In this document: positions 1 to 27,521 of the stretch, one piece after another
How positions within the stretch are numbered: the first letter of the stretch is position 1
How the letters are laid out: each line of letters opens with the position of its first letter
Sequence record: MH719082.1
Direction: 5' to 3' (one strand)
DNA: 64,000 nt
Source of the DNA: Escherichia phage vB_EcoM_IME392
Notes under the pieces: generated by a model
Told to the model about the DNA's origin: nothing
The model's database searches: none
What the model saw: only the letters and a program-made list of their open reading frames with translations
Translations under genes and position numbers: made by a program

Positions 1-931
1 TCACATCCAGAGTTGATCCTGGTTGGAACTCTCGACCAACATCTTCCATTACGTATTCTAGAATACTGTGATCGCTATTATAACGAGAAGCAGCATCTTC
101 AAGAGTAGCGATGTAATGCTGGAAGTAGGTACGGATCTTATACCAGGAATTAAGTGATCCGAGATCAATCGTAGTTACCGGAGCTTCATTAATGTCGTCA
201 ACATAAGCTCGGATATTACTTACCTGCTTCTTGATGTTCGACACTTCCGGATACCAGTGGAGATCATCCGTCATCACCACATAGTTGCCCATATCTACTT
301 TGAGCATAGTTGCGATGATTTCCTGGATGATCGTGAACTCCACCAGATTAACGTTAGTCAATCCCCAGATTAGATCATTACTACGGTTGAATACCGTGCA
401 GTCCAGACCACCATTACGGTACTTAAACGATAGAGCAATGTTGCAGATCATATCTGCGGTATTGATGCTGCCGATGCTGTTTACCAAACCTACATCAGAA
501 TCACGGCTGGGATCGTGAATAGTAGCCACGCACTTACGGTTACCCAGGTCAGAACGGAGGCGGTCTGTTACAGTCTGGAGTTGATCGTAGTTATACAGAC
601 GCTCACCGTAAGCACCACGCCAGGTAACCATATCATCGCTAAACATCTTAGCGCGAGGAACCATAATCGACATCCAGTTATCGATTGCATAGCCACCAGA
701 CAGTACCCACAATACTTCCCCCATAATTCCGAGGATATTGTCTTTACGTTCTGGATGAGCCATCCAACGATTAATCGGATTACTTAACTCAACTACAGCA
801 TGACCGATGGATACTACCGCCGAAGAGTTAACAGAAGTTCTGGACTTCTGCAACTCACCAGCCTTATCCATAGTATTGATGCTGTTAACCAGGATTTCAG
901 TATTACTGTTACCGCGAATTACCGAGATCAT
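1..931 (-). CDS. Thymidylate-synthase-superfamily enzyme, probable deoxypyrimidylate hydroxymethylase (C-terminus lies beyond window edge)
   Basis: Not in the ORF track because there is no stop in the window. My translation of the minus strand from ATG 931-929 stays open for 310 codons (MISVIRGNSNTEILV...). TS-fold motifs: WRGAYGERLY, NRKCVATIHDPSRD, Cys segment ADMICNIALSFKY (Cys codon 445-443), RSNDLIWGLTNVN, TDDLHWY. The start overlaps the kinase stop as ATGA (928-931). Confidence 0.75.
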   Translation of the reverse strand, partial: MISVIRGNSNTEILVNSINTMDKAGELQKSRTSVNSSAVVSIGHAVVELSNPINRWMAHPERKDNILGIMGEVLWVLSGGYAIDNWMSIMVPRAKMFSDDMVTWRGAYGERLYNYDQLQTVTDRLRSDLGNRKCVATIHDPSRDSDVGLVNSIGSINTADMICNIALSFKYRNGGLDCTVFNRSNDLIWGLTNVNLVEFTIIQEIIATMLKVDMGNYVVMTDDLHWYPEVSNIKKQVSNIRAYVDDINEAPVTTIDLGSLNSWYKIRTYFQHYIATLEDAASRYNSDHSILEYVMEDVGREFQPGSTLDV

Positions 932-1650
932 TTAGAGTCCTTACGCACTGAATCAATAGACTTAACTGCAGAGGACAGTAACTCCAGACGGGCCTCCTGA
1001 GGGATCATACCAGATGGCTCATTCAGGATCATAATACCTTTACCAGTATTAGTAAAACGAGCTGTGATTGATCCAGGATACACCGGATGATTCAGAGTTA
1101 CAGAATTACACAACGCAGCACCGAATCGCTCCTCGTAGGCACGCATAGTTACCTTAAGGAGAGTAGAACTGACTGCTACAGAGTATTCCGGATCAACAAC
1201 ACGGAAGTTATTGTCCTCAATACTCTTATCCTTCGTATTGAAGAACAGAGTCATGTTATAATAATCAATAGACTCGTTACTGAGACGTAATGCCTCATCA
1301 CGAGCTTCCTGGCTAGCAAACATACTGTTATGCAGCAGGAAGTAAACGTACGAATCGAATACCGCACGATCACTGACGATCAACTCGCCACGATTGTAGG
1401 CATCCTTGAACATCTGAGTTCGCTGACGAATAAGACGCAGCTGGAACTCTACCGCTTCCATAGGATCTTCCACAGCTAAGCGCAGAATATCCATATGGGA
1501 TGTTACTCCCAGAGGAAGATGGTCACGAGTCTGTACTGCACGGAAGGTACATTCGGTTGATTCTTCCCAGCCTTTAGCCAGAGTAGATTTACCGGTACCC
1601 TGCGCACCAGACATAATTACACTGTAGCCTGGGATACTATAGTCTCTCAT
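928..1650 (-). CDS. P-loop kinase of deoxynucleoside/dNMP-kinase type (candidate hm-dNMP kinase or 5-hmdU DNA kinase)
   Basis: Walker A SGAQGTGKSTLAKG. IVSDRAVFDSYVYF resembles the ERS..D..F motif of dNK/TMPK-type kinases. I prefer ATG at 1650 (GGAGAGAATA-ATG) over the TTG at 1662 used by the track. Confidence 0.6.
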   Translation of the reverse strand: MRDYSIPGYSVIMSGAQGTGKSTLAKGWEESTECTFRAVQTRDHLPLGVTSHMDILRLAVEDPMEAVEFQLRLIRQRTQMFKDAYNRGELIVSDRAVFDSYVYFLLHNSMFASQEARDEALRLSNESIDYYNMTLFFNTKDKSIEDNNFRVVDPEYSVAVSSTLLKVTMRAYEERFGAALCNSVTLNHPVYPGSITARFTNTGKGIMILNEPSGMIPQEARLELLSSAVKSIDSVRKDSK

Positions 1651-1682
1651 TATTCTCTCCAATTAAGAATCTTTCCCACATT

Positions 1683-1713
1683 TTAACAGCCTTTCAAGAC
1701 CCTAAAAGAGCGG
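1683..1713 (-). promoter_or_regulatory. Conserved early/middle promoter-like motif, copy 1 of 15
   Basis: Minus strand reads CCGCTCTTTTAGGGTCTTGAAAGGCTGTTAA followed by AAT (TGTTAAAAT, an extended -10-like element). It lies about 30 nt upstream of the kinase ATG. Confidence 0.6.
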
Positions 1714-1739
1714 ACTAAAAAGGCTGGTGTAAATGTGAA

Positions 1740-2711
1740 CTAGCTAAACTTATACCAGCGAGGTCTCATACGGATCTCGTGATTCAGTTTATGTAGTTTC
1801 GAGAATTCGCAGAATGAGTTGGTGAACATCTGACGAGTATAGAACCGCTCATCCTCCGGCATGAAGTGGAACCATTTCTCCGGCTCCCATGCATACCCGA
1901 AATGAGCACATATCTCTTTGATGTTCTGATACCACCATTCCACGAACATCTGGTAGCCGCAAGGAGGGTTCTGGTCATTAAGCATGTACCATACCCCATC
2001 CTGCGTCCCGGGTCCACATACGATAGCATCGTTATCTGTGTACGCAGTCTCTTTAGAGTAGGACATAGTTGCCCAGCATTGATATGCCATGAACGGACCT
2101 AATCCAGATACCTGTAACAGATGCTCGATGGCCTCGGTAGCGAACGGAGACTTCCATGCCAGTAAGATAGGATCACTGTAGGTCTTCACCAGATAGGCTC
2201 TGGCAGCTACACTGTACTTAATATCCTCTGGACATACTTCATTAGCCATCTTAACTGCTGTGCTAAGGAAGTAGGCATTTGATTGCTGTGGAGCAGTGAA
2301 CGGAGGACCATCCTCATAACGACGTAGCTCTTCACGACCCATGTTATGTATGTCGTCATAGCTCATCTCATAAAGAGGAAGGACTCTGCGGAAGCGATCC
2401 ATATATGAATCACCACGGTTTATCATCTGGAAGAGTACCACGTTAAGCGCCTTACTCTCCCAGCTTAGGGAATCGTTCTCCAGAATGTTCTTGATAGCCC
2501 ATACTGTTTCACGATCGTGCTTACGGAACACGTTAGTGAATTTAAACTTACTAATCCACTTATGTTCTGTCCACGGAGGAGGTAGCTTAAGTATCTCCTT
2601 CTTATAATAAACCTCAGTCCGCTCGCGGTTATACTCCACATACTCACGTAGCTCCTCGGGATTTATCATCCCGAGTAACCCGTCGAAGTGCAAACCTAAC
2701 GGTTTAGACAT
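1740..2711 (-). CDS. Conserved 323-aa protein; tentative aGPT-Pplase-like (alpha-glutamyl/putrescinyl thymine pyrophosphorylase family) DNA hypermodification enzyme
   Basis: Clean ORF with a TAATG overlap to the upstream gene (2709-2713). The segment PPPWTEHKWISKFKFTNVFRKHDRETVW matches what I recall of aGPT-Pplase-type proteins (memory only). It sits between a DNA-glucosyltransferase-like gene and a P-loop kinase plus TS-like pair. Confidence 0.4.
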   Translation of the reverse strand: MSKPLGLHFDGLLGMINPEELREYVEYNRERTEVYYKKEILKLPPPWTEHKWISKFKFTNVFRKHDRETVWAIKNILENDSLSWESKALNVVLFQMINRGDSYMDRFRRVLPLYEMSYDDIHNMGREELRRYEDGPPFTAPQQSNAYFLSTAVKMANEVCPEDIKYSVAARAYLVKTYSDPILLAWKSPFATEAIEHLLQVSGLGPFMAYQCWATMSYSKETAYTDNDAIVCGPGTQDGVWYMLNDQNPPCGYQMFVEWWYQNIKEICAHFGYAWEPEKWFHFMPEDERFYTRQMFTNSFCEFSKLHKLNHEIRMRPRWYKFS

Positions 2712-3790
2712 TAAAGAATACCTTCTTTGGTAAAGTAGTCTATTACTTCATCCTGAAGTTCTTGTGCGTAATCCTTGCGCAGATATAGATTCTCATACTG
2801 ATGTTTCAGCAGAGCATCACGATCTTTCAGTTTCTCTGCAATCTCCGCATTACTGGAGACGATCAGAGGAGCCAGTAGCTCTTCGGGGACGCCGCTCCGG
2901 ATTATTGTTCCAGCAGCATCTTTATCCACCAGCATCAGAGTACCAGAGCTCAGGTATTCGTAATAACGGTTAGGTGGGCTGGTATAGAACGAATTACTGG
3001 AGTTCCAGTCTTCGATAAGCAGTACCGCTGCATATTTAGCCACTTCATCCAGCATCTCTGACAGCTTAAACTTAGGCAGCCAGTTAATCGGAGCAGCAGG
3101 TCCCAGCCACTTACGTTCTTTAGGATCCAGCTCTTCCCAGTTTTCCTGCTCGTAGCCGTCAAATCCTGCAAGACCACCAGTATGTTTAGCGATGGACATC
3201 TGAGCTTTGTAGCTCGGCACCGACATAAACAGTTCCAGACCATCTTGCTGGGAGAAGTACTGAGTGAACTTATGGAAGCGGCCTTCACGAGCAGCACCGT
3301 AATACAGCAGGCTATTGTCCGGCTTATCTGACGATCCATAGCGAGGCTTACGACCAGGAACGTAGGTAAGACGGTTCCAGTTAATGTGATGATAGTTCTC
3401 TTCGCTAGGAGAATACTGATTACCCCAGGAAGTACGTTCAAATGCTGCTACAACTTTAAATACAGTAGCTGCGGTGATGTGTCTCCACTGCGGACCCTGG
3501 ATACGCATCTTAGACGAGTAATCCTGTCCAATCCAGTAGAACTTAGCTCCGACATCTGCCTGGTCTACCCAGAACTTATACATCTCGTCGCGGAACTTAC
3601 AGAAGGTAGGAACACCATTGATGGCGATAATCACGTCATATTTAGTGCCATCTTCCATAGCCTTAACGAACTTAGGAGTATCGTCCAACAGGTCAGCTTG
3701 AAGTCCGTAGGCTAACCAGGAAGCCAGAGTATTACTGGCAATGATGGATTTATCGCTGCATGGCGAAAAGTTAGTTACTGCAATCTTCAT
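2711..3790 (-). CDS. T4 beta-glucosyltransferase-like DNA glycosyltransferase (GT-B, GT63-like)
   Basis: 359 aa versus 351 aa for T4 BGT. Colinear matches to my recollection of T4 BGT: MKIAVTNFS / MKIAIINMG; YDVIIAINGVPTF / YDRLIVVNSSINF; LLYYGAAREGRFHKF / DVIYGGSFRSGQRESK; AAVLLIEDWNSSNSF...TLMLVDKD / IAALIIGDKNYNDNF...AVMLIDEE. Confidence 0.6.
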   Translation of the reverse strand: MKIAVTNFSPCSDKSIIASNTLASWLAYGLQADLLDDTPKFVKAMEDGTKYDVIIAINGVPTFCKFRDEMYKFWVDQADVGAKFYWIGQDYSSKMRIQGPQWRHITAATVFKVVAAFERTSWGNQYSPSEENYHHINWNRLTYVPGRKPRYGSSDKPDNSLLYYGAAREGRFHKFTQYFSQQDGLELFMSVPSYKAQMSIAKHTGGLAGFDGYEQENWEELDPKERKWLGPAAPINWLPKFKLSEMLDEVAKYAAVLLIEDWNSSNSFYTSPPNRYYEYLSSGTLMLVDKDAAGTIIRSGVPEELLAPLIVSSNAEIAEKLKDRDALLKHQYENLYLRKDYAQELQDEVIDYFTKEGIL

Positions 3791-3818
3791 GTTTAATTTC
3801 TCCGTAGGCTGTCACAAT

Positions 3819-3849
3819 TTAACAGCCTTTTAGCTCATCAAAGAAGCGA
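3819..3849 (-). promoter_or_regulatory. Conserved promoter-like motif, copy 2
   Basis: Minus strand reads TCGCTTCTTTGATGAGCTAAAAGGCTGTTAA followed by ATT. The upstream half overlaps the stop of the GT2 gene. It lies about 25 nt before ATG 3790. Confidence 0.55.
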
Positions 3850-4872
3850 GTTAGCTGATGCCCAGCTCAGCCAGTTATCGTTGAGATCGGTCAGGTAGGA
3901 GTAATCCTTATTCAGACCGAATACAGTACGGTTAGTTCCGTCGAACTTCATTATACCAGCGCCAGGAGCTCTGATGATTGCATCTTCCGTAGCCAGACAA
4001 TATTCTTTCAAGTATTCCTGGATGTTGGGACGAATACGACGGAAGGAACTATCTGCCGAGTCATAGTGGAACATATCTGCGCAGTGCCACTGTACGTAGG
4101 ATTTATCCGGACGGCTGAGTAGTTCATTACGGGTAACCATATCTTTAGGAGAATATCCCAGCTTAGCTACAGTGACTTCGTGAATACCTCCACCATTAGA
4201 CGAAGTATCCATCAGCCAGTTTTCGTCCCAGTAGAACGAAGTACCAGTACCAGTTACCTGTCCAACCTTCCAGCCCATCGCCATACCTTTAAACAACAGG
4301 TAGCAATCTTCTCCTACGGTCAACTGTTGGAAGGTTATATCGAACAGCCAGAACATCTTCTCACTGGTCTTGACCATGATACCGAGGTCAGTGGCCGGAG
4401 CAGTGTTATTATGTGACTGACGATCGCATAGTTCAACAATCTTGTAGTTACGATTCTTGAAGCTACGGACGAACGCCATCTCAAACTCAGATCCCTCGAA
4501 GTCTATAACGGAACGGTCCAGATGGAAAATATTATCTGCGAACCAGACATCATCATCCACGAAGTAGCAGATGTCTGGACACCAGTTCTGATCCTCCATT
4601 AAAATCCATGCCTTATCAAGAGCATGAGCTCGGATTCTTCCGATTACCGGATTATCGTACTTAGGACGATGCCAGAAATTAAACTGCTCGTCCCCACCGA
4701 ACTGCTCTTCCAGAACTGCCTTATCTTCTTCGGAGGCATCCTGCATAAAGTAGAAGAAACGATACTCGATAGAGTCGTCAGTCTTCTTAGCATCTTTGAA
4801 CGACTGAATCTGACGGAGTACCGACTTCATACGATGATAGGTTGGGATGATAAAAGCCACTTTGGTAGTCAT
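3838..4872 (-). CDS. Family-2-type (GT-A) glycosyltransferase
   Basis: N-terminal VAFIIPTYHRMKSV (the GT2 signature IPTYNR-like) and a DXD-like YFVDDDVWF. Only 6 nt separate it from the upstream deacetylase gene. Confidence 0.7.
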   Translation of the reverse strand: MTTKVAFIIPTYHRMKSVLRQIQSFKDAKKTDDSIEYRFFYFMQDASEEDKAVLEEQFGGDEQFNFWHRPKYDNPVIGRIRAHALDKAWILMEDQNWCPDICYFVDDDVWFADNIFHLDRSVIDFEGSEFEMAFVRSFKNRNYKIVELCDRQSHNNTAPATDLGIMVKTSEKMFWLFDITFQQLTVGEDCYLLFKGMAMGWKVGQVTGTGTSFYWDENWLMDTSSNGGGIHEVTVAKLGYSPKDMVTRNELLSRPDKSYVQWHCADMFHYDSADSSFRRIRPNIQEYLKEYCLATEDAIIRAPGAGIMKFDGTNRTVFGLNKDYSYLTDLNDNWLSWASANSLL

Positions 4873-4878
4873 ATTTAT

Positions 4879-5490
4879 TTATCCAATTTGACGAACTAAG
4901 CGAAACCCTTCGGCGTACGGCCACTGGGCAGAATATCCACGTAAGGTGGCTAGAGCTAAGATACTCTGGGTATCTCGGTCTGACTTAATCTGGGAGTCGA
5001 ATCGTCCCATAGCCTGGCACTTACACTCAATATCGTCCTTATTCAGACGCTCGAAGTAATTAGGTTCCATCTGACCGAACTGGGTCAGGGACTCGGCATA
5101 CTCATATTCCAGGATAAGCCAGTTATACGCTCGGAGAGCTACACGAGCAGCATGATTAACTAGTTGATGGTCCTGGTGTAGGCTACTGAACGGAATATAG
5201 ACTACATCCGGCCTGATTTTAGCAACATAGTCCGCAATATCCTTAGCCAATTGCGGAATATCCTTCTGAGTCATACCATCGCCTGTGGAGGCATCGTTAC
5301 GCTCCAGGCAATGTACTTCTTTGATATTCGGATAGACACCGAATGCTGCTTCGGCTTCACCACGACGGGTCTCGTCCGGAGCAGTTACTTCGAGGATGAA
5401 AAATTGGTCGTCGCGGAATTTGCTCATAATACCTCCGCAACCCAGAATCTCATCATCGTGATGTGGGCTGATAATCAATCGTGACTTCAT
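4879..5490 (-). CDS. PIG-L/LmbE-family N-acetylglucosaminyl deacetylase
   Basis: LIISPHHDDEILGCGG (PIG-L motif HPDDE) and a later HQDHQLV metal-binding-type motif. RBS GAGGA lies before ATG 5490. Confidence 0.8.
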   Translation of the reverse strand: MKSRLIISPHHDDEILGCGGIMSKFRDDQFFILEVTAPDETRRGEAEAAFGVYPNIKEVHCLERNDASTGDGMTQKDIPQLAKDIADYVAKIRPDVVYIPFSSLHQDHQLVNHAARVALRAYNWLILEYEYAESLTQFGQMEPNYFERLNKDDIECKCQAMGRFDSQIKSDRDTQSILALATLRGYSAQWPYAEGFRLVRQIG

Positions 5491-5505
5491 TATTAATCCT
5501 CGCTA

Positions 5506-5541
5506 CACAAAAATGGGGTTAGGCCGTAGAGACCTAACCCC
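5506..5541 (-). terminator. Rho-independent terminator-like hairpin
   Basis: 9-bp stem ggggttagg / cctaacccc (5515-5523 / 5533-5541), followed on the minus strand by TTTTT (plus-strand aaaaa 5509-5513). It shares the 17-nt string ctacacaaaaatggggt with the terminator at 13341-13357. Confidence 0.6.
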
Positions 5542-5557
5542 GTACGCCTCTGACACC

Positions 5558-5588
5558 TTAACAGCCTTTTAGGTCATCAAACAGGAGG
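5558..5588 (-). promoter_or_regulatory. Conserved promoter-like motif, copy 3
   Basis: Minus strand reads CCTCCTGTTTGATGACCTAAAAGGCTGTTAA followed by GGT. It overlaps the 3' end of the transporter gene and lies upstream of the 5515-5541 hairpin. Confidence 0.5.
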
Positions 5589-6959
5589 AGTTTCCTTAGC
5601 CAAGAATACTTTAGGTACAAAGATCTTGAGGAACCCGAATAGAATACACAATACCCCAATCAGTACCGGAACAGCCGATACAGCTACCAGAGTCTTCGTT
5701 ACAGTTACTACGTCACCACCTGCCCAGTTAAGTGCAGCAGCAACTACACCCATGCTTACAATCCAGAATACACGAGTTCTAGGAGCGGTCATGGACTCTA
5801 CCGTAATACCTGCTGAGTCATGACCTGTAATAAAGAACAGAATCACAGACACGAGGGTAATTACTGAGAATATCCATCCGCCTGGGAAATTAGCCAGAAG
5901 CTGGAAGATATCCTGAGCACCATGTTGCAAACCGGCTACACCGAATACGGTAAACCATACGTTACTGATAATGGTAGGGAACAGTACACATCCCAGGATC
6001 AGTTCGCGAATAGTACGGCCGTAAGAGATACGTGCCACAAACGCTCCGACGAATAATGCCCAACCTACCCAGGCTGCATAGTAAGCATAAGGCCAGCTAG
6101 CCAGCCATTGCTTCTCTTCAGCAGTACTGCCAATGTTTACCGACATAGGAATAATCTGGAGCAGATAGCTGCCAGAATAGGTGATGGTCTTCCAGAGGTA
6201 TTCAAAGAATGTACCACTTACAGCAACGAATGCCATAATAGATAGAGCTACGATTACATTATATCTGGATAACCACTTAACCCCACGATCGACACCAGTT
6301 ACGGCACTAAGTACAGTGCCCAGAGTCAGGAGTGCGATAATGGTGTAAGGACCAACATCCACACCAAGGAACTCTTTAAATCCAGAACTGATCGGGCCTA
6401 CTGCGTAGACGAACGACAGGGTTAAGCCTATGATGGTCGAGAAGAGTAAGCTTATCGTATTAAGGTTATTCAGAGTTCGGGACTTGAATAACTGATTAAG
6501 CGGACGGTCTTCACCACGTACATGCAGTAAGTACCCGAATGCCACCCCTACGACTGCATACACAGCCCATGCATTAAGTCCCCAGTCAAAGAAGGTAGTT
6601 ACCATATTCTGACGTTCGGACATACCCTCCTGATGATGGTACATAGGTTCGAGTACGCCATAATAAATCATGGATACACCCATACCGGTACTAAACATCA
6701 TAGAGTAATAGGTAAAGCGATTGTATTTCGGAGTACCTTTACCCAGCTTAATGTTACCATGTTTGCTGAATACAAAGAATGCCAGGAACGCCAGGAAGAT
6801 CAGCGAAGACCAGGTAAATATGAATCCATACTGAGATATAAATACAGACTTACTCCAGTCCATTACAGCACCAAACTGGGTGGGAGCAAACATAATGGCG
6901 AGTACAATACCCACCGTTACCAGCACCGTCCCCCAGGTAACTACCTTTGAATCGGACAT
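5577..6959 (-). CDS. BCCT-family (betaine/carnitine/choline-type) secondary transporter
   Basis: 460 aa, hydrophobic throughout with about 11-12 predicted helices by eye. FSKHGNIKLGKGTPKYNRFTYYSMMFSTGMGVSMIYYGVLEP matches the BCCT N-terminal block (RLG...F..SWFAMLFAAGMGIGL.FWGVAEP). WPYAYYAAWVGWALFVGAFVARISYGRTIRE matches the BCCT signature W.....W..W.PFVG.FIARIS.GRTIRE. Confidence 0.75.
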   Translation of the reverse strand: MSDSKVVTWGTVLVTVGIVLAIMFAPTQFGAVMDWSKSVFISQYGFIFTWSSLIFLAFLAFFVFSKHGNIKLGKGTPKYNRFTYYSMMFSTGMGVSMIYYGVLEPMYHHQEGMSERQNMVTTFFDWGLNAWAVYAVVGVAFGYLLHVRGEDRPLNQLFKSRTLNNLNTISLLFSTIIGLTLSFVYAVGPISSGFKEFLGVDVGPYTIIALLTLGTVLSAVTGVDRGVKWLSRYNVIVALSIMAFVAVSGTFFEYLWKTITYSGSYLLQIIPMSVNIGSTAEEKQWLASWPYAYYAAWVGWALFVGAFVARISYGRTIRELILGCVLFPTIISNVWFTVFGVAGLQHGAQDIFQLLANFPGGWIFSVITLVSVILFFITGHDSAGITVESMTAPRTRVFWIVSMGVVAAALNWAGGDVVTVTKTLVAVSAVPVLIGVLCILFGFLKIFVPKVFLAKETPPV

Positions 6960-6962
6960 TGA

Positions 6963-7871
6963 TTATTCCTCAATTACGCCCTTAGCGATTAACTGGCGAC
7001 GGACGTATGCGTAGCCAGCAGGTGAAGTAGCGAGGACGATGTCCGCACTACGGAAGTTGGTTTCGATATAGAAGCACTCCTGAAGATCCCGAGTACAGAA
7101 GAGCTCAGTACTCATCATACCCTCGCGTACGTTACATGCATCTGCAACGAATTGCGCAACATCTTCGAAGTGGTCTACCGAATGACTATAGCCGAATCCA
7201 CGGGCATCAGTAGATATAACGTAGTTAGGGCAGTACGGAGTGAAGTCAGTATCTTCGTAGGATTTACCCTGGATAGTGAAGATATCTGCATAGTCCTTGA
7301 ACCCGCTCGGGCTAACCAGAAGATCCCAGGCAACTACCATACCATCGATAACATCTGCCTGAAGTACCAGAGAGGTAGTATATTCGTCCGGTGCCTTATC
7401 GCAGACCAAAATTGGGGAGTCTCCCAGAAGGTCCGACATAGTGCCCGCACCCTTGCCCCCGTGAACACGATCACGGCGTACAAACGCCTCCTGAGGCCTC
7501 TGGTACAGTCTGAACGACGGTACAATCAGCGAATCAGGCAGAGTTCCCAGGTTAGCTTCGGAGCGAAGGCAGGATAATTGGTCAGCTTTAGACCACGTAC
7601 TTTCGATAGCGTGCAGATCGTTACCGATTTTGGTATAGATATAGCTTTCCGGATTACGGCACTTACCCTGATTCAACTCTTCGATAACCGAGTCGAAATA
7701 AGGAAGTCGTACTGATCCCTCACGAGGAGCAGTTAACGCTACTGAGCCATGCTTGGTATGATCCTGATCAACTACCATAACCTGGTCCAGACTTACACCC
7801 ATCTTAAGAATCTGGGATAATGTAGCTGCCGTGTGATTAGTGCAGCCAATCATCAAATCTAACTTCTTCAT
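6963..7871 (-). CDS. ATP-grasp-like ligase (tentative)
   Basis: 302 aa. Glycine-rich RRDRVHGGKGAGT and C-terminal FYIETNFRSAD (the E-x-N metal-binding motif of ATP-grasp enzymes). A 3-nt gap to the transporter gene implies co-transcription. Confidence 0.4.
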   Translation of the reverse strand: MKKLDLMIGCTNHTAATLSQILKMGVSLDQVMVVDQDHTKHGSVALTAPREGSVRLPYFDSVIEELNQGKCRNPESYIYTKIGNDLHAIESTWSKADQLSCLRSEANLGTLPDSLIVPSFRLYQRPQEAFVRRDRVHGGKGAGTMSDLLGDSPILVCDKAPDEYTTSLVLQADVIDGMVVAWDLLVSPSGFKDYADIFTIQGKSYEDTDFTPYCPNYVISTDARGFGYSHSVDHFEDVAQFVADACNVREGMMSTELFCTRDLQECFYIETNFRSADIVLATSPAGYAYVRRQLIAKGVIEE

Positions 7872-7899
7872 TTTAATTCCTCAGTTAACTTGTACAACC

Positions 7900-7930
7900 T
7901 AACAGCCTTTCGAACCCTAAAAAGAGCGAA
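7900..7930 (-). promoter_or_regulatory. Conserved promoter-like motif, copy 4 (variant CTAACAG)
   Basis: Minus strand reads TCGCTCTTTTTAGGGTTCGAAAGGCTGTTAG followed by GTT. It lies about 28 nt upstream of ATG 7871. Confidence 0.5.
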
Positions 7931-7965
7931 ATAATAGATATCTAGCCATCTCGTAAGATGGCTAT
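7931..7965 (-). terminator. Terminator-like hairpin after the methyltransferase gene
   Basis: 9-bp stem tagccatct / agatggcta (7944-7952 / 7957-7965) with a 4-nt loop. The minus-strand downstream tract is T-rich but interrupted (GATATCTATTATTT). Confidence 0.45.
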
Positions 7966-7972
7966 GTATATA

Positions 7973-8713
7973 TTACTTTAATTCGGAGAGATCTGCGATC
8001 TTCACCTTAGCTGATACATCCCAGATTCCTTCACCAAATCCGGTATCTTCCAGCAGCTTAGGCACTTCACGTTTCTGTACCTTAGATTGCTCGTACTTAA
8101 GCAGAGGAATATTACCGGTCTTATCTGATTGATCCCACAGATAAGTAGCAGCACCGATGTTATCGAACAGTGCGAGATCTGGATTAAACTGGGTAAGGAG
8201 TCGGCAGTCCCAGTGAGACTTATGTTCCTCGAAAGGATTAGTTTCCGTGCCACGCTGACGATACTCATAGTTAGGAGTACCGATCACGATTTTAGCCTTA
8301 GACTGGAATAGCTTAGACAACACCATAAGCCCGTCTTCGCTATCCAGATGCTCCAACACATCCAGCCAGATAATAGTGCCGAATTTATCCAGCTCTTCAA
8401 TAGGAAGATCTTTCAACAGTTCAACGATATTGCAGATATAGATATCGCTATATACATTTACACTGCCTTTGATGTAGTCTTCGCAGATGTCCAGACCTGT
8501 AATCTGACCATCGAATCCTGCGTTACGGAGAGCAAGACCAATTTCTCCACGACCTAATCCCATATCCAGGATTGGCCCGGAGATAATTTCGTTACGGAGC
8601 ATCCATTGGAGAAAGTGCTTCTGGACTAAGTAGGAGGTGCCTCCGTTGCCCAGTGAAGCCTTCGTGACCTTAGTACCAGGAACGAAATTACACTCGATAT
8701 GTTTACCAAACAT
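7973..8713 (-). CDS. Class I SAM-dependent methyltransferase
   Basis: Motif I ILDMGLGRGEIG, GLDICEDY, and the IIWLDVLEHL block typical of Methyltransf_11/23-type enzymes. Confidence 0.75.
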   Translation of the reverse strand: MFGKHIECNFVPGTKVTKASLGNGGTSYLVQKHFLQWMLRNEIISGPILDMGLGRGEIGLALRNAGFDGQITGLDICEDYIKGSVNVYSDIYICNIVELLKDLPIEELDKFGTIIWLDVLEHLDSEDGLMVLSKLFQSKAKIVIGTPNYEYRQRGTETNPFEEHKSHWDCRLLTQFNPDLALFDNIGAATYLWDQSDKTGNIPLLKYEQSKVQKREVPKLLEDTGFGEGIWDVSAKVKIADLSELK

Positions 8714-8739
8714 GTTCTGTCCTCATTAGTTTCGACACC

Positions 8740-8770
8740 TTAACAGCCTTTGGAGCCGTAAAAGAAGTGG
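8740..8770 (-). promoter_or_regulatory. Conserved promoter-like motif, copy 5
   Basis: Minus strand reads CCACTTCTTTTACGGCTCCAAAGGCTGTTAA followed by GGT. It sits between the 8785-8812 terminator and ATG 8713. Confidence 0.6.
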
Positions 8771-8784
8771 TATTGTACATATTC

Positions 8785-8812
8785 AAAAATTAGGGTGGCC
8801 GAAGCCACCCTA
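8785..8812 (-). terminator. Rho-independent terminator (UUCG loop)
   Basis: Stem tagggtggc / gccacccta (8791-8799 / 8804-8812). The loop cgaa is UUCG on the minus strand. A T5 run follows on the minus strand (plus-strand aaaaa 8785-8789). Confidence 0.75.
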
Positions 8813-8817
8813 GTTAG

Positions 8818-10065
8818 TTACAGTTTACCGATCATCTTCTGAATCATCTCGTCAGAAGTCTGATTCTCTACCTTAGCACGACGTTCTTGCAGATTAGCAA
8901 TGCGGTCGTCGTGATCTTTCTTACGTAGCATGCTGATGCTACGGCTAAGGCAGGAATTCAACACTTCCTGGGTAATACCGAGAGCTTTGATGATCTGAGC
9001 ATCAGACTTATCCTGCATAACCAGCTCGCCCACTTTAGGAAGAATCTGGTAAATCTCGATGTCTCGGTCAATCTTCTTAAGAGACTCAGTCTTATGGACG
9101 GAGAATGCCTGATTGTAGAGAGCCATCGTGACTGCAATCCAGTCGCGAATACCCATCGTCACCAGTTGACCATTGTAGGCTACCTGGATACGATGCGAGC
9201 GGTTCATGTAAGCAATATTCATGCATGCTTCGTGAACCTCGTCCATATCGATGGTCCTGATACGGGGAGCCTTCATTACTCGGATATAGATCTTATCCTT
9301 GGACATGTTCTTGACCAGGATCTTACCTTCTGATAACCACTTATTCAGGAACCCGATGCGAGGAGTAATTACCTCACCAGACCCGATGATGTCGATGGTG
9401 TCGGTATTGACGCGAGTTACCTTAAGGGTAAGGCCTAAGCGACCTACACCAGTTTCCCATAAGGACTTAAGGTCTGACTTACTCGGCACGATATCATACC
9501 CGTACTGAGCCTTAAGCAGATTATAATCGTCATGCTTGTAGGCTTCCAGCAGACTCTCGTAAGTGAATGCTGGGATACGGGACTGAATACCAGTAGCCCA
9601 TGAGAAGGTACCATACATCAGAGCATACGGAATAGGCACTGGAAGGTATGCGTATTCCATCTTCTCTTCACCTTCAACCTGCGGAACATAGTCCGCTAGA
9701 CCGAAGTAGTATTCTGCACGATCTTCGTTCAGGCCAACCTTCGTGTAACGAGGAGCAGCACCAGGAACTTCTTCCAGCAACTTAACGCCGAAAGATCCCT
9801 GACCATCAATAGCACCGATGCGAGCAAGACGGGAAATAGTCCCATCGATAGACTGGTCACCGAATGGGTGTAGCGACTGAGTTTCTGAGATAGCGCTCAG
9901 AGTCCCCACCAGCTTCCCACGAGCAATGCTATTCAGAGCCATGTAGATACGGCGCTGGGCAGGAATCAGGCCATCGATACCGGGAACTACACGATGAAGA
10001 GCACAATACACACTGTAGTCAGTGTAGTTCTTGGTGATGAATTCAGAAATCTTTACCTGTTCCAT
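8818..10065 (-). CDS. DNA topoisomerase II, DNA-cleavage subunit (T4 gp52-like / GyrA N-terminal-like)
   Basis: DGLIPAQRRIYMAL (GyrA/ParC motif DGLKPVQRR) and AAPRYTKVGL (active-site Tyr context). Adjacent to the ATPase/Toprim subunit. Confidence 0.85.
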   Translation of the reverse strand: MEQVKISEFITKNYTDYSVYCALHRVVPGIDGLIPAQRRIYMALNSIARGKLVGTLSAISETQSLHPFGDQSIDGTISRLARIGAIDGQGSFGVKLLEEVPGAAPRYTKVGLNEDRAEYYFGLADYVPQVEGEEKMEYAYLPVPIPYALMYGTFSWATGIQSRIPAFTYESLLEAYKHDDYNLLKAQYGYDIVPSKSDLKSLWETGVGRLGLTLKVTRVNTDTIDIIGSGEVITPRIGFLNKWLSEGKILVKNMSKDKIYIRVMKAPRIRTIDMDEVHEACMNIAYMNRSHRIQVAYNGQLVTMGIRDWIAVTMALYNQAFSVHKTESLKKIDRDIEIYQILPKVGELVMQDKSDAQIIKALGITQEVLNSCLSRSISMLRKKDHDDRIANLQERRAKVENQTSDEMIQKMIGKL

Positions 10066-10067
10066 AA

Positions 10068-12053
10068 TTACTCCTTAAACAGACCGTAGTCTTCTAACAG
10101 TTGGCGACGAGCACGAGATGAGTACAGCAACTTACGAGCGGCATCGAGATGCTCTTCATTATCATCGTAGGTTACCTGGATAAGACGGCGAGATTTCGAG
10201 TTAATGATGAATTGCTCAGTTTCTTCTTCGGTATATGACCCGAGTCCCTTACGACGTTCAACATAGCACTTATCGAAGTCGATCTTATCCTTCTCGTCAG
10301 CGTAGTAGAACTCGGTCTTCTTACCATTCTTAACTACATAGAACGGAGCTTCGAGTTTATACAGACGACCATCTTTAACCAGCTCTGGAGCATGGATAAG
10401 GAAGATTGAGCTAATGAGGTTACTGATGTGCTGACCATCAACATCAAGGTCGGTCATAATGATGATCTTACCGTAACGAGCCTTATCTATGTCAAACATC
10501 TGGCCCATACCACACCCGATAGTATTGATGATCGCCAGCAGCTCTGGGTTATTCACGAATTCCATGATATCCATGGAAGCCGAGTTACGCATCTTACCGC
10601 GAAGAGGAAGCACCGACTGATACTCATTACGCAACTTGATGATATTACCAGAAGCAGACGGACCCTCTGTGATGAACAGCTCACGAAGATCCCAGCGGTC
10701 GGACGGAGATTCGTAGATCTTCGCCATGTCACCATCCATAGCGGCCTTACGGTGATCATCACCCATCACCAGCTTAGACTTAATGAAGTCCATGTTGGAG
10801 AGTTTATTCAGGCTAGCTTTGTAAGCCAGGATCTTGGCAATCAGAGCATCAAAGAATTGCTTATTCTTCTCGTATACCAGGCTGAAGTAGAATGTGAGCT
10901 GACTCAGGCATTCTTTCTCGTAGAAGAAGTACTCGCCATAATAGTCGTAATCGTTGATTTGCTCATCATTCAGCATCAACTTATTCTTAGCCATGATTTC
11001 CCAGTCGCTCCAGGACATACCGAGGCCAGTTAACTTCTCCTTAGTCTGCGAGGAGAATGCTGTACGATAGCTGGAGAAGACGTTAGTGAACACGATCAAT
11101 CCCAGCTTAGCATCACCAACAGTGATAGCAGAGTTAACTTTATTCAGCATACCGCCGAGCGCTCTCGTGACCAGCTTCTCATGCAGACCACCATGCGGGT
11201 TATTGATCAAGTTGATCATGTCTACATGGGAGTAGGACATATTCTTATCAGAGTAGCCCAACTCACCAGAGAAGGTCAGACGATCGTTGAACGAGAACTC
11301 GTACTTGACTGTAGTATCGAGGAACAGCTTCTCATTCTCTGCAACATCACGACGAAAATCCCAGGTAGCCAGAGCTTCACCATTAACGGTGATAGTTGCA
11401 TCACGACCAATCAGGGAGATCTTCAGAGGAACAGTATCCACATCAGACCAGATGCTGCGGTACAGAGTCGCATCAGGCACCATGAAGACTGCTGTGGAGA
11501 AGTCGGTAGCCTTTAACGTCTCGAGCACTTCGTCTGGGAAGCCATCGTCGTGAAGATCATTCAGATCATTGATCACTCCATCGATTTCCATAACACCACG
11601 GCGGAATCCGAGGACATAGAACTGACCTGGCTCCATAGGGATGTGTGCCTTATCTCCCTGCATTACGCGACGGATTACAACGAATCGCTCGGACACTGCG
11701 TTAACAGCGGAGCTACCTACGCCATGGGTACCAGAGGTAATTTCACGGTTATCGCCCAGCTTAGAGCCAGCATGCAGATCTGTTACAGTAGAGAACAGAA
11801 TAGATTTAGACGGATCTTCCGGATCAGCGTAGATAGGAATACCACGTCCGTTATCGGTAACCAACTTGTAGGCTTCACGGTTAATGATCTGCACTAGGTT
11901 AGCATAACCATTAAGCAGCTCGTCCTCCGCATTATTGATTATTTCCTGGAGAGGATGAGTGTAGTTAATCGGGTCACCGAGATACATGGATACGTTCTGA
12001 CGAACGTTATCAGGGTAACGCAATCTTGTGATTTCAATAGCATGTTCTGACAT
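10068..12053 (-). CDS. DNA topoisomerase II, ATPase + Toprim subunit (T4 gp39-like / GyrB-like)
   Basis: NNAEDE, DNGRGIP, GTHGVGSSAVNAVS (GHKL ATPase blocks), ITEGPSASG and MTDLDVDGQHI (Toprim). Confidence 0.9.
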   Translation of the reverse strand: MSEHAIEITRLRYPDNVRQNVSMYLGDPINYTHPLQEIINNAEDELLNGYANLVQIINREAYKLVTDNGRGIPIYADPEDPSKSILFSTVTDLHAGSKLGDNREITSGTHGVGSSAVNAVSERFVVIRRVMQGDKAHIPMEPGQFYVLGFRRGVMEIDGVINDLNDLHDDGFPDEVLETLKATDFSTAVFMVPDATLYRSIWSDVDTVPLKISLIGRDATITVNGEALATWDFRRDVAENEKLFLDTTVKYEFSFNDRLTFSGELGYSDKNMSYSHVDMINLINNPHGGLHEKLVTRALGGMLNKVNSAITVGDAKLGLIVFTNVFSSYRTAFSSQTKEKLTGLGMSWSDWEIMAKNKLMLNDEQINDYDYYGEYFFYEKECLSQLTFYFSLVYEKNKQFFDALIAKILAYKASLNKLSNMDFIKSKLVMGDDHRKAAMDGDMAKIYESPSDRWDLRELFITEGPSASGNIIKLRNEYQSVLPLRGKMRNSASMDIMEFVNNPELLAIINTIGCGMGQMFDIDKARYGKIIIMTDLDVDGQHISNLISSIFLIHAPELVKDGRLYKLEAPFYVVKNGKKTEFYYADEKDKIDFDKCYVERRKGLGSYTEEETEQFIINSKSRRLIQVTYDDNEEHLDAARKLLYSSRARRQLLEDYGLFKE

Positions 12054-12089
12054 AATTTCTCCGGTCAGGTTTAAATAAGCTCACACAGT

Positions 12090-12120
12090 TTAACAGCCTT
12101 TGGAGGCCTCAAAGGAGCGG
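12090..12120 (-). promoter_or_regulatory. Conserved promoter-like motif, copy 6
   Basis: Minus strand reads CCGCTCCTTTGAGGCCTCCAAAGGCTGTTAA followed by ACT. It lies inside the last 10 codons of ORF 12090-12752 and about 35 nt before ATG 12053. Confidence 0.55.
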
Positions 12121-12752
12121 TTCACGAACAGGACTAAATCCTCTACTCTGGACTTATCTACCCACTCTGTTCTTCCTGGTAAGGACCTATTAGACTCGGA
12201 GAAGAAAGATAATCTCACTTTTGATTCTAAATCCACTCCCTCTTCTTTAGGCATCTCGATTAAGATTAGCGGGGTCATACCGATGCCTAATCCATCTAAT
12301 CTTCTTTCTATATTTGAAGTAATCCCATATTTAGCATTTCCAGATTGGTCCAATACGATATAAAAGACCACCTTACCTTCTGGAATGGTAGATATCGCTA
12401 GGTTCTTAATCACAGAGTTAGCGTATTCAGGATTCAACCATCGTTTATGATTTGAAGAGGATATCACTTTAGACATCTTCTTCTGGTAGTTCTCATCTTC
12501 CCACATTTTAATGTTGCGATTAGTCATGGAAACAGACCTAGCCCTGGTGGCGCATTCTGATCTTCCACATGTAGGACGATAGCCCTTAATCACGGATTTA
12601 AAGGAGCAGGGTTTTCCACATGAACATATTTTTACAGGAAAGAATTTTAAGTAATATTCATGCGGAGTTAAGCCATGAGATTTGGCATGGGAGGGAAATG
12701 CCTGGCCTCTTACTTCGGCAGAGCATATTCTACATTTATGATTCATAATCAT
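12090..12752 (-). CDS. Free-standing homing-endonuclease-like protein (N-terminal Zn-ribbon, DNA-binding repeats, C-terminal T5orf172/GIY-YIG-like domain)
   Basis: CRICSAEV...SHAKSHGLTPHEYY; repeats W.D.NY.KKMS / RWLNPEY; C-terminal VVFYIVLDQSGNAKYGITSNIERRL. Visibly more AT-rich than the flanking topoisomerase genes. Confidence 0.5.
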   Translation of the reverse strand: MIMNHKCRICSAEVRGQAFPSHAKSHGLTPHEYYLKFFPVKICSCGKPCSFKSVIKGYRPTCGRSECATRARSVSMTNRNIKMWEDENYQKKMSKVISSSNHKRWLNPEYANSVIKNLAISTIPEGKVVFYIVLDQSGNAKYGITSNIERRLDGLGIGMTPLILIEMPKEEGVDLESKVRLSFFSESNRSLPGRTEWVDKSRVEDLVLFVNRSFEASKGC

Positions 12753-12990
12753 ACCACTTAGTTAATTCAAGGAAGTCATCCATCGCGGAATTAAAGAAGG
12801 AGTCTATCTCCTTAGCCATTTCCTTGGCGAAGCGACCAGATTCGGTCGACATCACTACCTTAGCCTCGCCCATAGGGTGCTTGACCACTTCGTAGATTCC
12901 CAGATTTGGGTAATACACTATGCTGGATAGGAAGTTTACAGACTTAACCACCACAGTATTGAATTGAGTTACTTCCACCATCTTAATCAT
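12736..12990 (-). CDS. Hypothetical 84-aa protein (paralog of the next gene)
   Basis: ORF with overlapping junctions. Shares the pattern Y.P....Y.V ... DSF....D.FL with ORF 12987-13226. Confidence 0.5.
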   Translation of the reverse strand: MIKMVEVTQFNTVVVKSVNFLSSIVYYPNLGIYEVVKHPMGEAKVVMSTESGRFAKEMAKEIDSFFNSAMDDFLELTKWYDYES

Positions 12991-13370: not shown

Positions 13371-13373
13371 CAA

Positions 13374-24348: not shown

Positions 24349-25140
24349 TCAGTACCGAGGATCAGTATCCTGATAGTCGCGAATTAGGTCATAGACGAGC
24401 ACATCCAGACGAGTAGCATCTTCACGTTTCATGCGGGTAGGTCTGTACATATGGATACATACACAATGCTTAGACCAGACCTTAGCAGTCTGACGCTCCG
24501 TAAGTTCTTTACGGTCGATAATGTACTTCTCGAATGCGTGATAAGAGATAGGCTTTGATACTTCGACATGCTGGCACATATCGAGGAACTGCGGGTAGTC
24601 GTCAGTTAAGAAGCGACTGAATACGTCCTGGTAATAAGAGTAGTTAGGGAATTTACCACCCTGCTCCAGAGATAACGCATGAGTCTCGATCTCCTTCAAC
24701 ATCAGAGCCATAAATTCCTGATTATTGCTGGGAGAGGTCCACATGTTTATCTCGCAGTAATCTAACCGAGGGGAATAAACACGTACCTGAGTCTCGTGAG
24801 GAGTATACGTTTCGTGAGGGCTTCTGATAAAGAGAGTATCAGCATCTACATAGGAGTAACCACGAAGATCCATCATTACCTGAATCTTGAGTCGCAGATA
24901 GTCACATACAGAGGCCATCTTAGCCTTAGTTTTCAGGATATTATACGCCTTCTCCATAATAGGATCTCTGGCGAATAAATCCTGGATCATAACGCAACGG
25001 CAACCTTCGATAATATTCTCTTCGTTATCGATCACCAGTACATGATCATTAGGTCCGTATTTCTGTAAGGACTTAATGCATTCCCGAACATGGATAGGCA
25101 TTTTGGGTCCTACCCAAAGCTGGAAATAATTCTGACTCAT
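24349..25140 (-). CDS. GT32-like (DXD sugar-binding) glycosyltransferase
   Basis: FQLWVGPKMP (GT32 N-terminal IWIG..lP), ASVCDYLRLKI (SD.lRy block), YSYVDADTLF (DxD). RBS GAGGT lies before ATG 25140. Confidence 0.55.
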   Translation of the reverse strand: MSQNYFQLWVGPKMPIHVRECIKSLQKYGPNDHVLVIDNEENIIEGCRCVMIQDLFARDPIMEKAYNILKTKAKMASVCDYLRLKIQVMMDLRGYSYVDADTLFIRSPHETYTPHETQVRVYSPRLDYCEINMWTSPSNNQEFMALMLKEIETHALSLEQGGKFPNYSYYQDVFSRFLTDDYPQFLDMCQHVEVSKPISYHAFEKYIIDRKELTERQTAKVWSKHCVCIHMYRPTRMKREDATRLDVLVYDLIRDYQDTDPRY

Positions 25141-27516: not shown

Positions 27517-27521
27517 CGTAA

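Follow-up and report, generated by a model that had tools for sequence, protein, structure and literature searches.

Phages with hypermodified thymidines have DNA that is shielded from nucleases, restriction enzymes among them, and such modifications lead to new enzymes that act on DNA. In the thymidine pathways characterized so far, amino acids or polyamines are attached by way of a DNA kinase and a clade-2 transferase. Here we analyse a nine-gene island in Escherichia phage vB_EcoM_IME392 (MH719082.1; hereafter IME392), within a stretch of 64,000 nucleotides that is referred to as the window. Judged from its protein families, the island is probably a thymidine hypermodification cluster whose product would be a tailored amino-sugar carried on 5-hydroxymethyl-deoxyuridine (5-hmdU) in the phage DNA.

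The T-even phages, with T4 gp42, gp1 and the alpha- and beta-glucosyltransferases, resemble the island in having a thymidylate synthase (TS)-family hydroxymethylase with an adjacent nucleotide-type kinase, and a DNA glycosyltransferase related to T4 beta-glucosyltransferase (BGT), the catalytic Asp and UDP-binding residues of which are conserved in the island enzyme. In T4, b-gt also adjoins gene 42. The island differs in that its base appears to be derived from uracil, that of T4 from cytosine, in that its kinase is of the AAA_28 type, and in the addition of a second glycosyltransferase (GT), a deacetylase, a transporter, a putative ligase and a methyltransferase. In phages ViI, M6, PaMx11, phiW-14, SP10 and SH-Ab 15599, 5-hmdU is converted to 5-phosphomethyl-deoxyuridine (5-PmdU), followed by transfer of an amino acid or diamine (PMC5889632, PMC8989533, PMC13458397). 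A ViI-like TS and an HMUDK_hel protein are shared with these phages. The PF18748 kinase, the PF18724 transferase and the pyridoxal phosphate (PLP), radical S-adenosylmethionine (SAM) or flavin adenine dinucleotide (FAD) tailoring enzymes are absent from the island, where glycosyltransferases take their place.

Two further groups also involve sugars. The hypermodified thymidines of SP-15, YerA41 and Carin-5 contain oligosaccharide and phosphate, and their biosynthesis is unsolved (PMC12686479). Carin-5 has a glycosyltransferase block and an N-acetylglucosamine-type deacetylase (PMC12686479), comparable to the glycosyltransferases and deacetylase of the island, and phage RP13 has the kinase and the HMUDK_hel protein in common with it. 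SP-15, YerA41 and Carin-5 differ in their size (145-222 kb) and in the pentyl-type linker and phosphate of their modifications, and neither a BCCT transporter nor a homologue of the 302-aa island protein is reported there. The clusters associated with 5mYOX and ThyS contain a GT-A enzyme and a T4-BGT-like GT-B enzyme beside a TS homologue together with secondary glycosyltransferases and sugar-modifying genes, like the island; their demonstrated products are built on 5-hydroxymethylcytosine (5hmC), and the word 'deacetylase' occurs 0 times in the text that describes them (bioRxiv 2023.12.21.572611). DNA glycosyltransferases of the GT-A and BGT-like types are found widely in association with TS (bioRxiv 2023.12.21.572611).

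A TS homologue combined with DNA glycosyltransferases, to assemble a glycan on a hydroxymethyl pyrimidine, is already known. In addition, IME392 and phage EP_H11 were listed in 2025 as probably T-modified, a prediction that for both was made solely from the aGPT-Pplase gene, in an 'RP13-like/SP15-like' group with a family-A polymerase that carries a uracil-DNA glycosylase (UDG)-like domain, to which SP-15, YerA41 and Carin-5 also belong (PMC12686479, bioRxiv 2025.03.26.645540). What appears to be new is the hmdU context of the BGT-like enzyme, which here probably acts on hydroxymethyluracil, the conserved triad of PIG-L, GT2-like and BGT-like genes, the modular tailoring sets, and a transporter locked to an orphan enzyme. 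The original prediction, made from the IME392 sequence alone, had suggested a possibly undescribed pathway; this calls for qualification, given that the lineage had been flagged as T-modified and that TS-associated BGT-like clusters are published. As a candidate pathway the island is compact, and its E. coli phage is easy to handle. If it were solved, genes could for the first time be mapped to the structure of a glycosylated thymidine, several orphan protein families would gain a function, and the idea that phages import precursors of their DNA modifications would be put to the test.

Organization of the island

A check of the open reading frames (ORFs) found nine, all on the minus strand, in positions 1-8713 of the window (Table 1), in the co-oriented layout that had been proposed and with all of the proposed gaps and overlaps. 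These are a 3-nt gap between the genes for the 302-aa protein and the BCCT transporter (6960-6962), a 6-nt gap between those for the PIG-L and 344-aa proteins (4873-4878), a TAATG with a one-base overlap between those for the 359-aa and 323-aa proteins (2711), and an ATGA overlap between those for the kinase and the TS-like enzyme (928-931). The TS-like gene is cut at the window edge, with 310 of its 357 codons inside, and is complete in EP_H11. For the kinase, ATG 1650 is the most likely start; the ORF list gives TTG 1662 and the EP_H11 annotation an ATG. The G+C content of the island (0.45-0.47) is no different from that of the remaining window.

EP_H11 was the sole megablast match in the phage collection, with 93.1% nucleotide identity over the entire island. 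All nine genes recur there, and seven of these bear the annotation 'hypothetical'. The orphan families among them are very rare, with 2-12 relatives each among 1.8-5.8 billion proteins. Profile searches placed the TS-like, BGT-like and 323-aa proteins all in families related to DNA modification, and a coherent DNA-hypermodification cluster is supported by these assignments. The original prediction of a composite pathway, joining T-even logic to that of ViI and M6, therefore stands as regards the coherent cluster and most of the family guesses; it does not stand as regards the ViI/M6 route, which is incomplete here. Related sequences are designated below by L numbers.

A predicted dUMP hydroxymethylase

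The TS-like protein, whose family had been correctly called, matches Pfam PF00303 (46.6 bits against a cut-off of 24.3, E 3e-12) and PHROG 3676 (E 1e-70). It is 42-44% identical to the 'thyA' product of ViI-like phages, its nearest characterized relatives, followed by enzymes of SP-10, SPO1-like and M6-like phages. All of these are 5-hmdU phages (PMC5889632). The catalytic Cys (the invariant C163), an RSxD..G motif and one Asn are common to the TS-like, ViI and M6 enzymes. Identity to T4 gp42 is ∼15%, and the Asp of gp42 at the pyrimidine-specifying position is absent, the shared Asn sitting near that position. Within the thymidylate synthase superfamily the protein belongs to the dUMP hydroxymethylase branch, being closer to the enzymes of 5-hmdU phages than to dCMP hydroxymethylase, and it is predicted to be a dUMP hydroxymethylase. 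EP_H11 encodes a YfbR-like HD deoxynucleotidase beside the TS gene, a dCTP-deaminase-like protein and a dUTPase. Given these genes and the ViI-like character of the TS-like enzyme, a route from dUMP to hm-dUMP is a reasonable reading.

The kinase, the HMUDK_hel protein and the ViI/M6 route

The P-loop kinase matches Pfam AAA_28 (2e-9), with weak matches to the dNK and thymidylate-kinase families, and the PHROG 'thymidylate kinase' (1e-11). It has no match at E<=0.1 to PF18748, the family of 5-hmdU DNA kinases, which is matched by ViI gp67 (2.6e-116) and M6 gp54 (7.7e-18). In pairwise as well as profile comparisons its likeness to these two kinases is confined to the P-loop, over 17-43 columns. 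Phage homologues occur in EP_H11, Ab1-TPeters and RP13 only. It would phosphorylate either the nucleotide hydroxymethyl-dUMP or the base in DNA. The gene always adjoins the TS gene, also in L011 and Ab1-TPeters, relatives that have no HMUDK_hel gene, and because the kinase keeps its operon with TS where HMUDK_hel is absent we favour a nucleotide-level hm-dUMP kinase.

The 323-aa protein matches PF18723 (HMUDK_hel, formerly aGPT-Pplase clade 1), scoring 122.3 bits where the cut-off is 25 (E 3.2e-35), from residue 22 to 312 and over profile positions 5-277 of 281. It is 32% identical to RP13 ORF120 and ∼26% identical to homologues in Ackermannviridae. It matches PF18723 only, and not PF18724 (aGPT-Pplase clade 2). 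In M6, gp55 matches PF18723 (8e-56) and the characterized transferase, gp51, matches PF18724; gp55 was dispensable in the published reconstitution (PMC8989533). A tblastn search with M6 gp51 as a single query (E<=1) found no clade-2 transferase in the window or the complete EP_H11 genome, and searches of the same sequences with M6 gp51, gp52, gp53, gp54 and ViI gp67 gave no further candidates. The protein earlier called Pplase-like thus belongs to clade 1, a type that has no shown activity, and no clade-2 transferase was found. Together with the lack of a PF18748 match in the kinase, this speaks against the earlier statement that the logic of ViI, M6, SP10 and phiW-14 is present. The ViI/M6 route appears incomplete in IME392, and, with neither the PF18748 kinase nor the clade-2 transferase found, we prefer a model in which hmdU is glycosylated directly in DNA.

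The strongest alternative is that the kinase acts with the HMUDK_hel protein to phosphorylate 5-hmdU in DNA, that a nucleophile then replaces the phosphate or is linked by way of it, and that the glycosyl enzymes decorate the group so added. The choline-like alcohol that is imported could serve as the nucleophile, as could a sugar or sugar phosphate, and the phosphate might be retained, as in the phosphate-containing modifications of SP-15, YerA41 and Carin-5. In its favour, the HMUDK_hel gene is directly upstream of the P-loop kinase gene, as HMUDK_hel adjoins the DNA kinase in M6 (gp54/gp55) and is fused to it in SP10 gp186 (PMC5889632), and RP13, whose DNA is reportedly modified, has homologues of both proteins. 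We nevertheless consider this route unlikely. The kinase resembles the known DNA kinases at the P-loop only, it stays with TS in two relatives without HMUDK_hel, a one-query search gave no clade-2 transferase, the HMUDK_hel protein was dispensable when the M6 pathway was reconstituted, and a BGT-like enzyme whose catalytic Asp is intact requires a free hydroxyl as acceptor.

A family related to T4 BGT

Direct glycosylation of hmdU would fall to the 359-aa protein. HMMER searches with the protein and its family against PDB and Pfam did not detect a relationship with BGT (family GT63), Pfam Glyco_trans_1_2 giving a weak match in three of five family members. The relationship, which the original prediction had named correctly, needed a family alignment (A5), composed of five members from the synteny work that are 31-75% identical. 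When compared by hhalign with an alignment of T4 BGT and its 50% relatives, A5 gave a probability of 82.7%, an E of 9.5e-6 and a score of 46.9, over 287 collinear columns (1-334 versus 1-330). Forty column shuffles scored 10.1-21.0 and the reversed alignment 13.7. Two Pfam-supported GT4 enzymes scored 14.6 and 17.2, which is null level, and the signal is therefore specific to BGT rather than general to GT-B enzymes.

The identity to BGT is ∼23-25%. BGT D100, the catalytic base, and R191, R195, R269 and E272, which bind UDP, align with D90, R168, R171, R275 and E278, all invariant in the five-member family. D100 of BGT is also cited in connection with the TS-associated clusters (bioRxiv 2023.12.21.572611). 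A tblastn search of 50,697 phage records (E<=1) found the 359-aa protein in EP_H11 only, and a scan of IMG/VR with the family gave no relatives. The AlphaFold2 (AF2) model of the family (two sequences; predicted local distance difference test (pLDDT) 38.7) shows an N-terminal Rossmann-like domain only, and Foldseek found no match at E<=1e-3 for this low-confidence model. From the profile relationship and the aligned residues, the 359-aa protein is predicted to be a DNA hydroxymethyl-pyrimidine glycosyltransferase.

Predicted enzymes for building and tailoring an amino-sugar

When 1.84 billion representatives were searched exhaustively with HMMER, the 344-aa protein had only 12 relatives. Neither the window protein nor its family has a Pfam match above the cut-off. 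The residues D106-D107-D108 and G187/D189 are invariant in 14 sequences of the family, the profile of which matches SpsA (E 0.0055), followed by DPMS, TarP-type and PglI-type GT2 structures, and all of these matches fall in the N-terminal nucleotide-binding region (2-135). The invariant DDD and the structure matches lend moderate support to the GT2 call.

The PIG-L protein matches Pfam PF02585 with 52.9 bits against a cut-off of 28.2 (E 7e-14), in agreement with the earlier call, and has weak matches to NCBIfam BshB1 and BshB2. Its translation contains SPHHDDE and HQDH, corresponding to the PHxDDE and HxDH metal-binding motifs of the PIG-L/LmbE family. In the relatives its gene always adjoins that of the GT2-like protein.

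Several Methyltransf_* families of Pfam match the protein at the far end of the island (4e-5 to 1e-3), none of them reaching the gathering score. A homologue in L010 is 51% identical and has an unmarked Methyltransf_31 match. The proposal of a SAM-dependent methyltransferase is moderately supported by these sub-threshold class I matches.

A GT32-like gene 15 kb away from the island (Table 1) is probably a tenth member of the pathway, because its homologues (E 2e-17) sit inside the islands of L002, L007, L010 and L026. On this sequence evidence it is put forward as a candidate.

A transporter co-inherited with an orphan protein

The BCCT call is borne out by a Pfam PF02028 match of 311.6 bits (E 1e-92) that covers residues 7-446 and profile positions 1-481 of 485. 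The protein is a bare 460-aa core. Its nearest solved relative is BetP (2.7e-48), and transporters of trimethylamine and choline come next. The W..W..Y motif of transmembrane segment 4 (TM4) is intact, and the WxWWxxW motif of TM8 is replaced by AAWVGW, in which one of the paired Trp residues has become Val. The protein scores below every NCBIfam equivalog cut-off and so its substrate cannot be named; its relatives suggest an importer of a quaternary-ammonium-type precursor.

The 302-aa family has four homologues among 5.8 billion proteins, and neither the protein nor the family has a Pfam, PHROG or PDB sequence match. The AF2 model of the family (five sequences) has a pLDDT of 39.5. With this low-confidence model the top of the Foldseek list is enriched in ATP-grasp ligases (CPS, RizA with a probability of 0.99, PsnB, Ddl and TTL), none of them at E<=1e-3. 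By eye, the invariant RRDRVHGGK.AG and YIE.NFR of the family look like an ATP-grasp loop and ExNxR motif. The original prediction of an ATP-grasp ligase remains unproven on these results, with no sequence match and no Foldseek match at the threshold; from the model and the motifs we lean towards an ATP-grasp-like ligase.

The genes for the 302-aa protein and the BCCT transporter occur together in IME392, EP_H11, L002, L007 and L026 (37-38% identity in L026), and L010 and L011 have neither of the two. This strict co-inheritance is the main argument for proposing that the imported compound is the substrate of the 302-aa enzyme. That the BCCT protein imports a quaternary-ammonium compound (glycine betaine, choline, carnitine or a relative are candidates), and that the 302-aa enzyme then links it covalently to an amino-sugar which hydroxymethyluracil carries and which has been de-N-acetylated, is, taken as a whole, a speculative proposal to which we give a low probability. 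If true, it would mean a permanently cationic glycan in DNA, the first DNA modification made from an imported environmental metabolite with a dedicated virus-encoded importer, and a new family of DNA-glycan-tailoring enzymes in the 302-aa protein.

Most other 'phage' matches to the BCCT protein are in short, unannotated or multi-contig records. Vibrio phage 1.031.O (MG592415; L022) has three overlapping genes at 7824-10822, with a BCCT transporter flanked by a cytidylyltransferase/choline-kinase fusion and a LicD-family gene. By their sequences these would form a complete Lic-type pathway for choline-to-phosphocholine decoration with its own importer. By analogy they may serve as a precedent for importer-fed decoration; the proteins other than the BCCT transporter are not homologous to those of IME392. 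The genes beside the Vibrio phage transporter were considered as lookalikes of the 302-aa protein and rejected on comparison. Vibrio phage 1.031.O is lytic.

Related islands and the target of the pathway

The rare families recur in the same kind of cluster in metagenomic relatives. Clusters were readable in L002, L007, L008, L009, L010, L011, L026 and L028, and all are of this kind. On the longer contigs the cluster lies between topoisomerase II genes and the kinase-TS pair, which is followed by HD, primase, helicase and PolA genes. An all-against-all comparison found the order PIG-L, GT2-like, BGT-like in five lineages (31-75% identity), and L028 adds a sixth lineage with a GT2-like/PIG-L-like pair.

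Other parts of the cluster vary. The methyltransferase module occurs in IME392, EP_H11 and L010. A GT2 paralogue, a phosphatidylserine-decarboxylase-like protein, an ATP-grasp protein and a small ORF occur in L002, L007, L010 and L011, and a CxxCxxCC protein in L002, L007 and L011. The module made up of the pyruvoyl-type phosphatidylserine-decarboxylase-like protein, the ATP-grasp protein and a 42-63-aa ORF (L002, 3750-5860; L010, 6422-8098; L011, 1684-3909) is absent from IME392 and EP_H11; its composition suggests ligation of an amino acid, followed by decarboxylation, on the glycan. By its gene content, the locus appears as a hypermodification hot spot in which a fixed core is combined with exchangeable tailoring modules, and this weighs against a role directed at the cell envelope.

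Acinetobacter phage Ab1-TPeters (PP763253; L020; 110 kb) is a relative with a 516-aa orphan and two GT4 genes at the corresponding site after topoisomerase II (11704-16832). Its kinase-TS-HD block is elsewhere in the genome and it has no HMUDK_hel gene. From these genes it probably makes a different glycosylated hmdU. The 516-aa protein had looked BGT-like by eye and was rejected in hhalign, with a score of 19.5 against null scores of up to 29.5.

It is conceivable that the sugar, deacetylase, ligase and transporter genes act on a host envelope glycan or a small molecule, with the BCCT protein serving in osmoprotection, and that TS, kinase and HMUDK_hel alone concern DNA. The GT2, PIG-L and BCCT families are known mainly from envelope and small-molecule pathways, and the Vibrio phage BCCT/LicD cluster might equally decorate a surface glycan. 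In mycothiol and bacillithiol synthesis, a GT-B enzyme (MshA or BshA) is followed by a PIG-L-family deacetylase (MshB or BshB) and then by an ATP-dependent ligase that acts on the freed amine. The island mirrors this order of glycosyltransferase, PIG-L deacetylase and ligase, with GlcNAc transfer, de-N-acetylation and amine ligation as its suggested steps, and differs in that the acceptor is inositol or malate in those pathways and would be a DNA base here. We regard a target other than DNA as quite improbable, since the first glycosyltransferase is related to a DNA enzyme, T4 BGT, and not to a generic GT-B enzyme, and since on long contigs the triad lies on the same strand between replication genes and the TS/kinase pair. 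Moreover, in the window the triad shares an arm-wide motif with replication genes, the BCCT transporter is the only membrane-associated protein by sequence, and the families hardly occur outside this phage lineage.

A proposed pathway for glycosylated hydroxymethyluracil

Our preferred reading thus places all nine proteins in a pathway that ends on DNA. What the sequences show is how the families are related, that catalytic residues are conserved and that the genes are linked in the relatives; from this we infer the pyrimidine (uracil and not cytosine), the order of the steps, the sugars, the imported compound and all of the chemical products. The pathway would begin with conversion of dUMP to 5-hm-dUMP by the TS-like enzyme, the dUMP coming from the dCTP-deaminase-like enzyme and the dUTPase of the phage. 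The translationally coupled P-loop kinase would convert 5-hm-dUMP to the diphosphate, as T4 gp1 does with hm-dCMP, and the HD 5'-deoxynucleotidase, encoded by an adjacent gene just outside the window, may deplete the competing dTMP or dUMP. The resulting hm-dUTP would be made before replication and hmdU would be incorporated by the phage polymerase.

After replication, the BGT-like enzyme is proposed to move the sugar of a host UDP-sugar onto the 5-hydroxymethyl group of flipped-out hmdU. The GT2-like enzyme would add an N-acetyl-hexosamine or use it to extend the glycan, and the PIG-L protein would then strip the N-acetyl group, exposing an amine. Tailoring would be specific to the lineage: in IME392 the 302-aa enzyme, probably of ATP-grasp type, would attach the compound imported by the BCCT transporter, likely a quaternary ammonium of the betaine or choline type, most simply by acylation of the sugar amine, and the SAM-dependent methyltransferase would add a methyl group. 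The HMUDK_hel protein may be an accessory; our guess is a DNA-binding or base-flipping helper. This scheme agrees with the product first predicted for the island, a hydroxymethyl-pyrimidine whose glycan or amino substituent would be deacetylated before acylation and/or methylation.

Several points weigh against this scheme. The AlphaFold models for the 302-aa and 359-aa families are unusable (pLDDT 39), and the GT2-like and, above all, the ATP-grasp assignments rest on weak profile matches or motifs. When the 302-aa family was compared by hhalign with Pfam-supported ATP-grasp proteins from related islands and with E. coli AccC, PurK and RimK, the result was null, and the positive control failed too, so that the comparison had no power. 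In the alignment, E22 of BGT is not conserved and is matched by N20. The kinase gene adjoins the HMUDK_hel gene and its product could phosphorylate DNA instead, and the model assigns the HMUDK_hel protein no role apart from the guess above. A very divergent clade-2 transferase could escape a search made with one tblastn query. The BCCT gene could be an unrelated osmoprotection gene. There is no nucleotide-sugar synthesis gene within the island, and the donors must therefore be supplied by the host. Finally, a literature search found no paper on the DNA chemistry of IME392 or EP_H11 beyond two mentions as 'probably T-modified'.

A T-even pathway proper, with the TS-like protein as dCMP hydroxymethylase, the kinase as hm-dCMP kinase and glycosylated 5-hydroxymethylcytosine as the base, would account for the BGT-like enzyme and the TS-kinase gene pair and would accord with the glycan hypermodifications demonstrated for such glycosyltransferases, which are on 5hmC (bioRxiv 2023.12.21.572611), but we consider it very improbable in view of a TS-like enzyme that is far closer to that of ViI than to T4 gp42 and that has an Asn in common with those of ViI and M6 but not the pyrimidine-specifying Asp of gp42, of a dCTP-deaminase-like enzyme and a dUTPase that supply dUMP, and of an HMUDK_hel gene typical of thymidine-hypermodifying phages.

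Table 1. Features of the IME392 island and associated features in the window (copies of the leftward-arm motif are numbered from the window edge).
Feature	Position	Strand	Basis or context
TS-like enzyme, predicted dUMP hydroxymethylase	1..931	-	Pfam PF00303, PHROG 3676, ViI-like identity
P-loop kinase	928..1650	-	Pfam AAA_28, PHROG 'thymidylate kinase'
HMUDK_hel protein, 323 aa	1740..2711	-	Pfam PF18723
T4 beta-glucosyltransferase-like GT-B enzyme, 359 aa	2711..3790	-	hhalign against T4 BGT alignment
GT-A/GT2-like glycosyltransferase, 344 aa	3838..4872	-	Family profile, invariant DDD
PIG-L/LmbE-family de-N-acetylase	4879..5490	-	Pfam PF02585
BCCT secondary transporter, core only	5577..6959	-	Pfam BCCT
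Possible ATP-grasp-like ligase, 302 aa, very rare family	6963..7871	-	Motifs by eye
Class I SAM-dependent methyltransferase	7973..8713	-	Sub-threshold Methyltransf_* Pfam matches
GT32-like (Gly_transf_sug, DXD) protein	24349..25140	-	PF04488 5.5e-4, below cut-off
Motif copy 1	1678..1713	-	Upstream of kinase/TS unit
Motif copy 2	3814..3849	-	Upstream of BGT-like/HMUDK_hel unit; overlaps 3' end of GT2-like gene
Motif copy 3	5553..5588	-	Upstream of PIG-L/GT2-like unit; overlaps 3' end of BCCT gene
Motif copy 4	7894..7929	-	Upstream of 302-aa/BCCT unit; hairpin 7943-7964 precedes
Motif copy 5	8735..8770	-	Upstream of methyltransferase gene; terminator-like hairpin 8791-8812 precedes

A conserved motif of the leftward gene arm

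A conserved motif of ∼36 nt, cCgCTctTTTga.g.gTc.AAAGGCTGTTAAa.TGT, is present in all five intergenic regions of the island. The original prediction had placed copies 5, 4, 3 and 2 before units 1-4, as is found here, and copy 1 inside unit 4. The core of copy 1, at 1684, lies between the genes for the 323-aa protein and the kinase and hence before unit 5, so that every one of the five units has its own copy.

The 11-nt core of the motif, AAAGGCTGTTA, has 15 exact copies in the window, compared with a chance expectation of 0.95. The minus strand carries every one of them, between 1684 and 29184 and upstream of leftward genes, with starts at 1684, 3820, 5559, 7900, 8741, 12091, 18119, 23326, 24312, 25777, 27304, 27487, 27545, 28150 and 29174; none of the 15 is in the rightward structural arm of the window. 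The motif, with its minus-strand copies over this whole range, is thus a signal of the entire leftward gene arm and not specific to the island. A scan of the window for the sigma-70 promoter consensus gave 18 sites and shuffled sequence 21.7; with no excess of such sites, the motif is not a standard sigma-70 promoter. The annotation of EP_H11 includes an RNA polymerase beta'-like gene, which lies outside the window, and for this reason a phage-encoded polymerase may read the motif sites.

A strong 11-bp hairpin with a T-run (5515-5541, minus strand) lies after motif copy 3 and ahead of the start of the PIG-L gene, inside the presumed 5' leader. In units 1 and 2 the hairpins are upstream of the motif instead (Table 1), and short hairpins also follow several other motif copies. 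A hairpin in the presumed leader could serve in attenuation or in stabilization of the 5' end. At 27487-27585 on the minus strand the motif occurs as a tandem pair, with cores at 27545 and 27487, 58 nt apart. The same strand carries, at 13374-16139, a 921-aa ORF for a fused SbcCD-like nuclease, in which a calcineurin-like phosphoesterase of the SbcD/Mre11 type is joined to a Rad50/SbcC-type ATPase with a zinc hook.

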